Assembly (NCBI RefSeq): GCF_003334355.1
Contig: NZ_QOWP01000074.1
Reading direction: 5' to 3' (one strand)
Length of the DNA stretch: 2,519 nt
From: Escherichia coli
Lineage (GTDB): Bacteria > Pseudomonadota > Gammaproteobacteria > Enterobacterales > Enterobacteriaceae
Every line of letters begins with the position of its first letter. Positions within the stretch are counted from its first letter, which is position 1. The position numbers were made by a program, and so were the translations under genes. The notes below the pieces were generated by a model. It made no database searches. It had not been told where the DNA came from and saw only the letters and a list, made by a program, of their open reading frames with translations. Shown in pieces: positions 1,256-2,425 of the stretch.

Positions 1256-1280
1256 GCCGCAAAGTGACGTCATTTGCGGC
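1256..1280. repeat. Near-perfect 25-bp palindrome GCCGCAAA-G-TGACGTCA-TTTGCGGC between the convergent mob and 76-aa ORF ends.
   Basis: The outer 8-bp arms are exact reverse complements and the central TGACGTCA is itself palindromic. No U-tract follows on either strand, so it is not a canonical intrinsic terminator. It could be a protein-binding site, a structure-dependent transcript end, or a single-strand initiation or resolution signal. Confidence 0.5.
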
Positions 1281-1296
1281 ATTCACCACGAAAAAA

Positions 1297-1527
1297 TTAA
1301 TCATTCAGATGGTAATCATGTTTTTTTAAAATAGAAAAAGCTGCGTTTTTCTGCTTTGGTGACAAACCCTTAGTTGAGTATTTATTACCGCTAGTTCTAC
1401 GATATATGCTGTAAACACTGCTTAAAAAAGTACGCTCCCAAACAGTCAGAACCTCATTCTTTTTTAGTGAATCATGCAGCATTAGCCTGTCTACATTTTT
1501 AAAAAGTTTATCTTCAGCATTCATCAT
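1297..1527 (-). CDS. Hypothetical small basic protein (76 aa) of unknown function, probably co-transcribed with rep.
   Basis: The ATG-ATG start (1527-1522) overlaps the last 14 nt of rep in another frame. A GAAGG Shine-Dalgarno motif lies about 6 nt upstream on the - strand. Composition matches rep, and the stop is TAA at 1297-1299. No family recognised; the protein is Lys/Ser-rich. Confidence 0.4.
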   Translation of the reverse strand: MMNAEDKLFKNVDRLMLHDSLKKNEVLTVWERTFLSSVYSIYRRTSGNKYSTKGLSPKQKNAAFSILKKHDYHLND

Positions 1528-2017
1528 CCATTACCTTCGTCTGCACCGTTCTTCCATTGGTGTCATAACTGATCTTTAACTCAATTTTCTTTCTTCTTTC
1601 GTAAATTGATGGCCAGTCTCCCCGTGCAAAAAGAAAGGGGTTAGCTTCAAGTTCCCCACGCCCTGCCCGGAAGAATATTTGTTTATCTACAAGAGCCGCA
1701 ATTATGTTTTTAAAGGTCTGATATTCAATATGAACCCTGGGCTGTATGGTTTTTTCAAATCTAGTTTTTGATACAGACACAAACCCATCCCATCCAATCA
1801 GCATTGCCAATTGTAAAAGCACATCATTTTGAGATTTTGATAAACCATGAATCATCGCAATGTCTGCAATGTATAGCTTGACGTAGGGAGGTTCGGCTGG
1901 GATGGAAAAGGTCTCGATCTTAGAGTCTTGTTTTACCTCACCGTTTTCATCCATGTATGTATGCCGTTCAAGCCTAGAAATCTTTTTCGTATTCACTCCA
2001 GCCCCACGTTTCGCCAT
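1514..2017 (-). CDS. rep: Putative plasmid replication initiator (small, 167 aa, iteron-associated). Family not securely recognised; possibly a small RepL-like or winged-helix Rep.
   Basis: The ORF sits directly downstream, on its own strand, of a 22-bp iteron array and an inverted-repeat operator that reuses the iteron core. Its central segment (PPYVKLYIADIAMIHGLSKSQNDVLLQLAMLIGWDG) looks like a helix-turn-helix or winged-helix DNA-binding region. AT-rich codon usage matches the surrounding replication module. The function is assigned from context, not homology. Confidence 0.7.
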   Translation of the reverse strand: MAKRGAGVNTKKISRLERHTYMDENGEVKQDSKIETFSIPAEPPYVKLYIADIAMIHGLSKSQNDVLLQLAMLIGWDGFVSVSKTRFEKTIQPRVHIEYQTFKNIIAALVDKQIFFRAGRGELEANPFLFARGDWPSIYERRKKIELKISYDTNGRTVQTKVMDDEC

Positions 2018-2321: not shown

Positions 2322-2425
2322 ATTCCGCTTCCTCGCTTTGGCTGTTCGTTCCTCGTCGCGTTGCTCCTGCGGTACGCCTCAGCCAAAGCTGCGGCGAGCG
2401 GTTCCTGCTCTTTCAAAGACGATTT
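2322..2425. other. Segment resembling the region just downstream of the ColE1/pMB1 origin (as in pBR322/pUC backbones); candidate single-strand initiation or primosome assembly (ssi/pas-like) element. Contains a 10-bp inverted repeat (2335-2344 / 2380-2389).
   Basis: TTCCGCTTCCTCGCT (2323-2337) and GCTGCGGCGAGCGGT (2389-2403) are exact matches to strings I recall from the pUC/pBR322 backbone. The following 19 nt match at about 13 positions to ATCAGCTCACTCAAAGGCG. The intervening sequence differs and forms the stem GCTTTGGCTG / CAGCCAAAGC with a loop of about 35 nt. Function is assigned from memory. Confidence 0.45.

Follow-up and report, generated by a model that had tools for sequence, protein, structure and literature searches.

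We propose that the minus strand of the window (the whole 2,519-nt stretch of DNA analysed, which corresponds to a circular MobV/iteron plasmid of 2,442 bp) carries a primosome assembly site from position 2401 to 2325, to which some 20 nt on the 5' side probably also belong. The site would be PriA-dependent, of the phiX174 type, and a long-interior member of the ColE1 ssiA family, and would prime the Rep-coding strand. We regard this as the probable explanation of the element, with its PriA dependence and its ssi activity both predicted from homology. Sites of the PriA type were described from about 1980 onwards and had been found in several plasmids by 1991, and thus finding one in this plasmid is not surprising; the site is a further member of a long-known kind. 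Members of this class need their hairpin for activity, work in one orientation and stimulate the ATPase of PriA (n'), and the SS->RF conversion that they support is resistant to rifampicin and requires priA, priB, dnaT, dnaB, dnaC and dnaG. The module is nevertheless unannotated in every plasmid record that we examined and has no Rfam-like model.

Homology to ColE1 and anatomy of the module

The ssiA site of ColE1, also known as n'-pas, has been described in the region downstream of the origin, where it recruits PriA for lagging-strand synthesis (PMC3167613; PMC5935869). A preliminary description of this DNA reported two exact 15-mers of the pMB1-type (pBR322/pUC) backbone and assigned them to the primosome assembly region just downstream of the ColE1 origin. 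Both 15-mers, TTCCGCTTCCTCGCT at 2323-2337 and GCTGCGGCGAGCGGT at 2388-2402, are indeed present exactly in a pMB1-type sequence (L067), where they are spaced by 42 nt as against 65 nt in the window, while in ColE1 (NC_001371) the first is exact (15/15) and the second matches at 14/15, in collinear order. The ColE1 module lies 110-165 nt downstream of the origin (the RNA/DNA switch), a position anchored on the mapped RNAI (645-749, minus), and on the RNA II-sense, displaced strand, which bears out the assignment to the primosome assembly region (PMC3167613). Between the two plasmids, chance would be expected to give 0.03 exact 15-mer matches, and a collinear pair is far less likely; together with the covariation of the hairpin described below, this led us to reject chance similarity.

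The flanks of the module are identical at 12/12 and 11/11 positions to ColE1 (L003, 1309-1362), and the homology extends into the 5' context. The further similar stretch mentioned in the preliminary description is also real and lies directly 5' of the module on the minus strand, at 2402-2425, where the window reads CGTCTTTGAAAGAGCAGGAA and the pMB1-type sequence CGTCTTTGAGTGAGCTGATA. It is identical in CP099290 but weakly conserved in columns 1-12 of our family alignment (A1), and is possibly part of the site. The features of the element, and of the origin beside it, are as follows.

2325-2401, minus strand: core ssiA-type module of 77 nt, reading 5' to 3' CCGCTCGCCGCAG-CTTTGGCTG-AGGCGTACCGCAGGAGCAACGCGACGAGGAACGAA-CAGCCAAAG-CGAGGAAGCGG, defined by regular-expression extraction, family comparison, fold, alignment A1 and pair counts.
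2390-2401, minus strand: 5' flank and base-helix arm CCGCTCGCCGCA, the complement of the second 15-mer.
2325-2335, minus strand: 3' flank and base-helix arm CGAGGAAGCGG with unpaired purines, the complement of the first 15-mer, invariant in A1.
2335-2344, plus-strand letters: inner-stem arm GCTTTGGCTG, pairing with 2380-2389 (inverted repeat I7, 10/10 complementary).
2380-2389, plus-strand letters: inner-stem arm CAGCCAAAGC, pairing with 2335-2344 (inverted repeat and pair counts).
2345-2379, minus strand: interior with internal loops AGGCGTACCGCAG and CGAGGAACGAA, whose columns are invariant in A1, around a small variable apical hairpin.
2402-2425, minus strand: conserved stretch directly 5' of the hairpin, common to ColE1/pMB1-type plasmids.
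2204-2219: A+T-rich (ATATCT)n tract between module and iterons, a candidate unwinding or nick region.
2074-2170: origin iterons, 22 bp x 4.4, AGTACGATTAGTACTTGAGGTG (Tandem Repeats Finder), 3' of the module on the minus strand.
1514-2017, minus strand: rep, 167 aa, from the open reading frame list, on the same strand as the functional hairpin.

The element is therefore larger and better defined than two 15-mers, namely a 77-nt hairpin module on the minus strand from 2401 to 2325. Judged by the family comparison, the 15-mers are the conserved base of one hairpin and the 10-bp stem is its inner stem. Across the family the flanks CCGCTCGCCGCA...CGAGGAAGCGG are invariant and the interiors variable, although among the metagenome-derived sequences the invariance of the flanks is imposed by the search pattern. 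The 5' flank is identical in ColE1, pMB1-type, IncX5 and small wHTH-Rep plasmids, and the 3' flank is identical at ColE1 L003 1352-1362.

Thus the module shares with the ssiA of ColE1 and pMB1 (pBR322, pUC) its flanks (CCGCTCGCCGCAG...CGAGGAAGCGG), the similarity 5' of the hairpin, the strand polarity of the motif, the hairpin architecture and the origin-proximal location. It differs in having an interior of 54 nt rather than 31 nt, with a covarying 10-bp stem and conserved loops, and in the replicon that it accompanies, which has a Rep and iterons where ColE1 has RNA II/RNA I. As previously suggested, the plasmid is not a ColE1-type replicon with an RNA I/RNA II primer system, since neither RNAI nor any other Rfam family matches anywhere in the window, even at E<=1, whereas ColE1 gave RNAI at 73.8 bits. 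Moreover, the ColE1 module has its 5' end facing the origin, whereas the module in the window has its 3' end facing it, and this opposite polarity means that the ColE1 mechanism is not simply transferable.

Fold, covariation and selected strand

As single-stranded DNA the 77 nt fold with -21.5 kcal/mol, at z = -3.3 to -3.8 relative to shuffled sequences. Among 27 copies of the window type, pairing of the inner stem reaches 95.8%, and 7 of its 9 pairs show compensatory double changes. Pairing of the base helix is 100% across the 27 sequences, its closing pair changing from CG to GC in IncN and from CG to AU in Pantoea; in F the base helix is kept by compensatory changes as GTGC...GCAC. The apical helix is partly supported, with a GC to AU change at one pair. 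The covariation score was 0.164 compared with 0.065 for shuffled alignments (0/500 as high) and at most 0.048 for slid controls, although such shuffle statistics overstate independence because the aligned sequences are kin. Taken together, the fold z and the pairing data point to a hairpin of the ssiA type. The outermost GGAA/TTCC pairing of the window's minimum free energy structure was rejected as part of the element, being only 36% paired across the family. The stem that the preliminary description saw as acquired by this segment is real and 100% complementary, but rather than a local acquisition it belongs to a widespread variant with a long interior, of which it is the covarying inner stem. 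The short module of ColE1 itself folds no better than shuffles (z +0.36), and therefore one cannot rely on the stability of the fold to mark activity.

Two observations bear on the strand. In 32 distinct inner stems, G.T mismatches outnumber A.C mismatches 14:2 when read on the GAAGCGG strand (p=0.004), and the GAAGCGG strand folds better in 47 of 49 modules, which are not independent of one another. These data argue indirectly that the selected hairpin is that of the minus, Rep-coding strand, with the same polarity as the displaced strand on which the ColE1 site is active.

The same G.T bias would be expected whether the hairpin acts in single-stranded DNA or in RNA, and covariation and the G.U/G.T bias fit an RNA equally, so the hairpin might be read as a small regulatory RNA, an antisense element or a terminator. 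We consider this very improbable. One weak terminator-like pattern does overlap 2387-2403, but a single such match is no more than shuffles yield, and no T-run follows the hairpin on either strand. The search at E<=1 gave no Rfam match, and no sigma-70-like promoter was found in 2000-2519. The module also accompanies the origins of unrelated replicons with different transcription units, and the homologous ColE1 element is an established single-stranded DNA signal (PMC3167613).

Other elements called 'ssi' likewise act as hairpins in single-stranded DNA, among them the Frpo/ssi3-type elements and ssiA/ssiB of RSF1010. Frpo hairpins are much longer and carry -35/-10 boxes. They are single-strand promoters that drive leading-region operons (PMC10104558), and an Frpo-type promoter was rejected here, the element being 77 nt long with no promoter-like site in 2000-2519 and thus of a different class. 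The ssiA/ssiB sites of RSF1010 are 40-nt repeats for a plasmid-encoded primase, RepB' (PMC8567376); RSF1010 encodes its primase, whereas none was found among the open reading frames of the window.

Replicon context and mode of use

On the minus strand the order is module, A+T-rich tract, iterons and rep, with 155 bp between the module and the iterons. The preliminary description had spoken of an iteron replicon, and a Rep and 22-bp iterons are present, but the replicon does not appear to be a plain iteron-theta one. This is because its Rep is a distant relative of RepL/wHTH-type initiators (relatives found by tblastn are annotated RepL, at 25-36% identity) and because the nearest characterised plasmids show Rep nicking and a mixture of rolling-circle and theta intermediates (bioRxiv 10.1101/2022.12.05.519187). 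The protein has no match among Pfam, NCBIfam or PHROG families, and is 33% identical to the Rep of another carrier of the module (L005) that has a comparable A+T-rich tract.

We suggest the following mechanism. Rep-initiated replication at the adjacent iteron origin would render the Rep-coding (minus) strand single-stranded, allowing its 77 nt to fold into an interrupted base helix (CCGCT/AGCGG, CC/GG and C/G, with the unpaired purines of GAGGAAGCGG) surmounted by an inner stem of 9-10 bp, a pair of internal loops conserved in sequence and, at the tip, a small hairpin. PriA would recognise this folded hairpin and, with PriB/DnaT and DnaC, load DnaB, after which DnaG would prime and Pol III would turn the single strand into duplex. 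Rolling-circle plasmids have their single-strand origin immediately 5' of the origin of the leading strand, and the module would occupy the corresponding position; lying 5' of the A+T-rich tract, iterons and rep on the functional strand, it would be exposed last and therefore prime complementary-strand synthesis. In a theta mode, a fork moving away from the origin would meet the site on its leading-strand template and might be primed by it. Vegetative priming of the complementary or lagging strand, as raised in the preliminary description, agrees with the strand that appears to be selected.

The single-strand origins ssoA, ssoU and ssoW of rolling-circle plasmids are likewise orientation-specific hairpins just 5' of the leading-strand origin that turn a displaced strand into duplex, and their loss leads to instability (PMC4595007; PMC5737340). 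They are, however, mostly dependent on RNA polymerase and unrelated in sequence, whereas the module belongs to a PriA-type family and would here serve a rolling-circle mode that is itself a prediction.

Closer parallels come from the pHW126-like plasmids pHW126, pIGRK and pIGMS31, which are of 2-3 kb with a wHTH/RepL-type Rep, and with MobV in pIGMS31 and pHW126. Their ssi, an 'ssi-like palindrome', precedes the origin repeats and rep on the Rep-coding strand, as the preprint describes and as the pIGMS31 sequence shows, and the module has the same place in the window. RepM nicks the repM-coding strand between ssi and origin, and deletion of ssi is tolerated in all three plasmids, with increased copy number, multimers and instability (bioRxiv 10.1101/2022.12.05.519187; PMC6854812). 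By analogy, loss of the module should be non-essential but should raise copy number, produce multimers and lower stability, although these phenotypes come from an ssi of another sequence class and a barely related Rep (E about 0.05). Indeed, the module has no blastn similarity to the ssi of pIGMS31 or pIGRK, the CR motif of the pHW126-like family (TTGNTATTACTG) was not found in the window origin, and the window Rep matches RepM and RepR at E values of 0.07 and 0.045, which sets it apart from the pHW126 type.

The multimers formed by the deleted pHW126, pIGRK and pIGMS31, which their authors called unusual for an ssi (bioRxiv 10.1101/2022.12.05.519187; PMC6854812), might suggest that the module is a multimer-resolution or rolling-circle termination site. 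This seems highly unlikely to us. No cer/dif-like XerC/XerD site was found on either strand of the whole circle, with arms 6-8 bp apart and as many as 3 mismatches allowed in each. The homology of the element is to priming signals rather than to recombination sites, and the covariation of the hairpin speaks against a site for a recombinase acting on duplex DNA. The multimers may plausibly be a secondary effect of defective complementary-strand synthesis.

Origin-flanking ssi signals of F and R1-type plasmids have been proposed to act in leading-strand or fork priming. The same PriA/primosome site could in this way serve theta replication, priming the leading strand or loading DnaB after opening by Rep/DnaA, with no rolling-circle sso; unwinding toward higher coordinates would expose the module on the leading-strand template. 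This use, which we think rather less likely, is compatible with our preferred explanation and not exclusive of it. It is favoured by the classical 22-bp iterons and A+T-rich tract of the window and by the same polarity of the module in the bona fide theta replicons IncX5, IncX-like, RepA plasmid, IncN and F, the last having two inward-pointing copies that flank repE. pIGMS31, too, has theta as well as rolling-circle intermediates, but Reps of the RepL/pHW126 type nick, and the nick mapped between ssi and origin on the Rep-coding strand fits the geometry of an sso (bioRxiv 10.1101/2022.12.05.519187).

A use in transfer, in which the module would prime the complement of the transferred strand inside the recipient cell once MobV has mobilised the plasmid, was also considered and is in our view unlikely. 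The primosome assembly site of ColE1 has been proposed as a primer of the transferred strand, and the pMV158 sso is needed for efficient transfer (PMC4595007). The module of the window sits between the origin and the oriT/mob region, and of 466 plasmids with a long module 197 are mobilizable and 206 conjugative. Against this, the remaining 63 carriers are non-mobilizable, and in large plasmids the module tracks rep and iterons rather than oriT. Furthermore, the strand that appears to be selected is the minus strand, whereas the best-studied MOBV relaxase nicks the mob-coding strand (PMC5737340), which in the window would by analogy be the plus strand, the one that encodes mob. The oriT-like repeats of the window, L005, pIGMS31 and the published description of pMV158, when compared, are too palindromic for the nicked strand to be assigned.

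Distribution and exchange of the module

The module family occurs in thousands of ColE1-like plasmids and in hundreds of others, and the non-ColE1 carriers usually have it beside rep or iterons (IncX5, IncN, F ori2 and small wHTH-Rep plasmids). In the window, in L005, L007 and L009-L011, and also in IncX5 (L001), IncX-like (L012), RepA (L017) and IncN (L002) plasmids and F ori2, a distance of 150-550 bp separates the module from rep or iterons, which its 3' end faces; in all, it is origin-proximal in about 12 contexts besides the window. R6K and R100 gave no copy on comparison, and therefore iteron and FII replicons do not in general require the module. A contig scan with GCTCGCCGCN{30,60}GAGGAAGCG, a pattern of 18 specified bases and 31 gap lengths for which about 270 chance matches are expected in 298 Gb, gave only about 4 real short-type modules among 120 loci.

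F carries a short-type module at 48029-48082, on the strand that encodes repE and some 365 bp upstream of that gene. As in the window, module, iterons and rep follow one another in this order, but F is a large theta plasmid, its module is the short 54-nt version, and a second, inverted copy lies downstream of repE. The F copies are presumably the primosome assembly site (ssi) of the mini-F ori2 region reported by Imber et al. (1983) and Nomura et al. (1991).

The interior is subject to replacement. CP099290 has a backbone and flanks identical to those of the window and differs in the interior (2345-2379) alone, which has been swapped for a different, self-pairing one; in another carrier (L009) this site is occupied by a short ColE1-like version, and in a metagenomic contig (L148) the interior is inverted between the same flanks. 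Furthermore, pIGMS31 and pIGRK (NC_011405) have a phiX174-type site in the slot that holds the ColE1-type module in the window, the published ssi of pIGMS31 matching the F-G intergenic (n') site of phiX174 at 88.7% identity over 53 nt. That the signal is modular, as had been supposed, is supported by its presence beside unrelated rep genes, by the interior swap on an identical backbone and by the phiX174-type site in the slot of these relatives. The comparisons thus indicate that the module is real, selected and exchangeable.

Given the replaced interior of CP099290 and the inverted one of L148, we speculate, with considerable doubt, that the interrupted base helix CCGCTCGCCGCA / CGAGGAAGCGG is a recombination 'socket' for the swapping and inversion of interiors, ColE1- and phiX174-type cassettes being likewise exchanged at one slot of small RepL-type plasmids. 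If this were so, the role of the module would go beyond primosome loading: as a mobile accessory of the origin it would set how replication is balanced between the rolling-circle and theta modes, and would keep multimers from forming.

Thousands of enterobacterial plasmids carry the module, among them small MobV plasmids that are common in the clinic and IncX/IncN resistance plasmids. Its comparative definition, with an invariant base, a covarying stem, conserved loops and a defined strand, could become an annotation model, and such a model could orient origins and predict the exposed strand. The swap of the interior and the alternation of phiX174- and ColE1-type sites in one slot are natural 'experiments' on what PriA recognises.

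A ColE1-type hairpin outside a ColE1 replicon

The two 15-mers for which the preliminary description had noted a match to the pBR322/pUC backbone occupy 2323-2337 and 2388-2402 of the window, and the arms of the 10-bp stem noted there (2335-2344/2380-2389) pair perfectly. In ColE1 (NC_001371) the first is exact, the second matches at 14 of 15 positions and the two are collinear, while both are exact in a pMB1-type sequence (L067), with a spacing of 42 nt against 65 in the window. The likeness runs for a further ~20 nt past the second 15-mer (window 2402-2425), as also described; chance similarity was rejected, only 0.03 exact 15-mer matches being expected. On the ColE1-active strand, here called the GAAGCGG strand, the element reads CCGCTCGCCGCAG - interior - CGAGGAAGCGG; the 15-mers are the complements of its flanks, whose mutual pairing makes the base of a hairpin. 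The element is 54 nt long in ColE1, pMB1 and the F plasmid and 77 nt long in the window (minus strand, 2401 to 2325), where the longer interior contains the 10-bp stem, a pair of internal loops and a small hairpin at the apex. As single-stranded DNA the window module is predicted to fold far better than its shuffles (z -3.3 to -3.8).

Rfam places RNAI of ColE1 at 645-749 on the minus strand, so RNA II runs on the plus strand from ~640; the RNA/DNA switch occurs ~555 nt downstream of the RNA II start, and thus near 1,200. The ColE1 stretch matching the window module (1309-1362, plus strand) therefore lies 110-165 nt past the origin, on the strand that has the sense of RNA II and is displaced by leading-strand synthesis. 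It is in this region that the n'-pas/ssiA site of ColE1, which recruits PriA and starts lagging-strand synthesis, has been placed (PMC3167613), and a ColE1-like plasmid with an 82-nt stem-loop ssi adjoining oriV has also been described (PMC5935869). The primosome assembly region named initially thus agrees with both the mapped position and the literature site. The window was likewise said to have no RNA I/RNA II replicon, and an Rfam search of it returned no match, RNAI included. Roles as an RNA (again with no Rfam match), a Xer site, a promoter or terminator, or an Frpo-type single-stranded DNA promoter (PMC10104558) were checked and are unlikely.

ssiA of the pMB1/ColE1 type also occurs on short contigs of two non-enterobacterial assemblies, Streptomyces chilikensis scaffold_133 (L047, 3,873 bp) and Pseudovibrio stylochi contig_28 (L067, 3,548 bp), which are probably cloning-vector or ColE1-plasmid contamination.

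Selection on the structure and on one strand

A metagenome scan anchored on the module flanks, with the interior left free, returned 115 contigs with 73 distinct sequences; some are GC-rich chance matches, and the rest sort into several interior subtypes that each possess a self-complementary stem of their own. For 27 distinct copies of the window type, drawn from annotated plasmids and from metagenomes, we built an alignment and counted pairs against an explicit structure. In this alignment the inner stem is paired in 95.8% of cells, with two-sided compensatory changes at 7 of 9 positions, and the base helix is 100% paired and nearly invariant, the flank invariance of the metagenome-derived rows being imposed by the search pattern. 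The closing pair of the base helix changes from CG to GC in the IncN copy and from CG to AU in the Pantoea copy. All five whole-structure measures lie above all 500 shuffles and every slid control, for sequences that are mutually related. The outermost GGAA/TTCC pairs, predicted from the window alone, are paired in only 36% of cells and were rejected as part of the element.

A stem pairs on both strands, and a G.T wobble on the functional strand is a C.A mismatch on the other. With both mismatch types tolerated alike, 32 distinct inner stems read on the GAAGCGG strand contain 262 Watson-Crick pairs against 14 G.T and 2 A.C, a bias with a binomial p of 0.004. The same strand is predicted to be the more stable in 47 of 49 modules, which share their conserved parts and are not independent. 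Together, the wobble bias and the stabler fold point to the ColE1-active polarity as the selected one. In the window this is the minus strand, which is also the Rep-coding strand.

Plasmid context, distribution and exchange

Because positions 1-77 of the window return at 2443-2519, the sequence represents an entire circular plasmid of 2,442 bp with 77 nt read twice. Many 2.44-kb MobV plasmids, found in E. coli, Klebsiella, Salmonella, Shigella and Enterobacter, are 99.8-99.9% identical to it, and it carries the following features.

160-192, upstream of mob: oriT-like region, GTCTAGTGAGTA, then inverted repeat CACTATCA-TCC-TGATAGTG
238/259-1227, plus strand: MobV relaxase (NCBIfam MobV)
1297-1527, minus strand: 76-aa ORF, overlapping the end of rep by 14 nt
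1514-2017, minus strand: rep, 167 aa
2020-2028 / 2037-2045, directly upstream of the rep start: perfect 9-bp inverted repeat, TTTAGTACT / AGTACTAAA
2074-2170, upstream of rep: iterons, 4.4 copies of 22 bp
2204-2219, upstream of rep: A+T-rich tract
2438-2447 / 2470-2479 (on the circle, 2438-2442 + 1-5 / 28-37): perfect 10-bp inverted repeat with a 22-nt loop, TCGTCAAGGG / CCCTTGACGA

Rep matches no family in Pfam, NCBIfam or PHROG, and by tblastn is 25-36% identical to initiators annotated 'RepL' from small plasmids of enterobacteria and Firmicutes. The 9-bp repeat includes the iteron half-site AGTACT and, by comparison with IR1/IR2 of pIGMS31, is likely a Rep autoregulatory operator. The 76-aa ORF, a 'hypothetical protein' in related records and without a match in PHROG, may be translationally coupled to rep.

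In PLSDB the long module was detected in 466 records, of which 206 are conjugative, 197 mobilizable and 63 non-mobilizable; none of those listed annotates it. For the short module of ColE1 type the number of records exceeds 5,000, among them non-ColE1 plasmids ranging from 1.9 to 167 kb. In annotated contexts a replication initiator gene lies within a few hundred bp of the long module, as in IncX5 (L001), IncX-like Serratia (L012), Citrobacter RepA (L017) and IncN (L002) plasmids. The long module is also found in small plasmids (L005, L007, L009-L011) with wHTH/MarR-like or RepL-like Rep and MOBV or MOBP genes, in which a search for RNAI found none. Read on the GAAGCGG strand, the module has its 3' end toward the iterons or rep in nearly all contexts. 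R6K and R100 contain no copy, and the F plasmid (NC_002483) has two of the short type.

48029-48082, plus strand: ~365 bp upstream of repE, on the repE-coding strand
49564-49617, minus strand: inverted, just downstream of repE

These flank repE/ori2 with both 3' ends toward repE, and the upstream copy keeps its base helix through double compensatory changes (GTGC...GCAC). A 1983 study reportedly mapped a primosome assembly site in the mini-F ori2 region. A few copies have other neighbours: umuD and a DNA methyltransferase gene, possibly the leading region, in an F-like plasmid of Pantoea, and a toxin-antitoxin pair on a Salmonella plasmid of 186 kb.

Three sequence comparisons show that the module is exchanged as a unit, in keeping with its description as modular. 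In L005, where Rep is just 33% identical to that of the window and the iterons are unrelated, a module ~85% identical to the window's occupies the same place. L009, whose backbone is related to that of the window plasmid, has a short ColE1-like version at this site. In CP099290 (2,460 bp), rep, the iterons and most of mob are 100% identical to the window and both module flanks are identical; only the interior (window ~2337-2390) is swapped for a different, shorter, self-pairing interior of the 64-nt type.

The breakpoints of this swap fall inside the conserved base helix. The only other strongly divergent patch between CP099290 and the window (1261-1320, 51% identity, with an indel) lies between mob and the 76-aa ORF, overlaps the palindrome AAGTGACGTCATTT (1262-1275) and abuts an inverted repeat (1253-1263/1273-1283). 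In metagenome contig SMLE01000583.1 (4869-4946) the same flanks enclose a window-type interior in inverted orientation, as would follow if recombination across the base helix had flipped the inner hairpin.

Mode of action and the pHW126-like plasmids

The best-supported reading of the window module is a primosome assembly site acting on the minus strand when this is single-stranded, for which we infer PriA dependence; the ssi/pas-like interpretation offered at the outset is essentially right. The element kind has been known for four decades and the concept is already recognised in the nearest plasmid family, so the module is not new in kind: it is an unannotated new member, a long-interior variant.

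That family was represented by the nearest CHARACTERISED plasmids, pHW126, pIGRK and pIGMS31 (2.3-2.9 kb, with wHTH/RepL-type Reps, and MobV in pHW126 and pIGMS31), in which 1) an 'ssi-like palindrome' lies upstream of the conserved region CR, four iteron-like repeats and rep; 2) deletion of the pHW126-type ssi is tolerated, with increased copy number, rapid multimerisation and instability; 3) the RepM nick in pIGMS31 falls on the repM-coding strand, between ssi and origin and immediately upstream of CR; and, 4) rolling-circle and theta intermediates are both seen on 2D gels (bioRxiv 10.1101/2022.12.05.519187; PMC6854812; PMC2831885). The window plasmid is not a strict member, as its Rep matches RepM and RepR only at E ~0.05 and the CR motif is absent. 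When the pIGMS31 (NC_011406) and pIGRK (NC_011405) records were compared with the window, their 'ssi' showed no similarity to its module. Over 53 nt, pIGMS31 2106-2158 shares 88.7% identity with the F-G intergenic region of phiX174 (2320-2372), which holds the original n' (PriA) recognition hairpin; in pIGRK (~1990-2050) the architecture is retained, with a G/C hairpin where pIGMS31 has the A/T one. In the cited papers the pIGMS31-type ssi is compared only with plasmid ssi signals of 'diverse replicons', and a mention of phiX174 was not found there. Some small plasmids thus carry a phiX174-type site 5' of their origin on the Rep-coding strand, in the slot where the window plasmid has one of the ColE1-ssiA type; both archetypes being PriA sites, this argues for functional equivalence of the two.

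The minus-strand order of module, A+T-rich tract, iterons and rep matches the classical rolling-circle layout, with the sso upstream of the dso and exposed last; sso function is orientation-specific (PMC4595007). A nick like that of pIGMS31 would displace the minus strand, which the module would prime for conversion to duplex, as in phiX174 SS to RF synthesis. Which strand is exposed in the window plasmid, and the phenotype of module loss there, we likewise infer. The polarity in ColE1 is the reverse of the window's, with the 5' end of the module facing the origin. Under theta replication, a fork leaving the origin would have the module on its leading-strand template, where it could prime that strand or load DnaB, a use suggested by the inward-pointing F pair and the IncX/IncN arrangements. 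Rolling-circle and theta uses are not mutually exclusive.

Priming of the transferred strand after mobilisation, with precedent in ColE1 and pMV158 (PMC4595007), is a possible but unsupported role: MobM of pMV158 nicks the mob-coding strand (PMC5737340), by analogy the plus strand of the window and not the selected one. The oriT-like region at 160-192 resembles the pMV158-type oriT (hairpin plus GTGTG/T) and is conserved in L005. The 10-bp repeat at 2438-2447/2470-2479, which lies between the module and mob and recurs in L005 and CP099290, is a possible mob/oriT accessory site.
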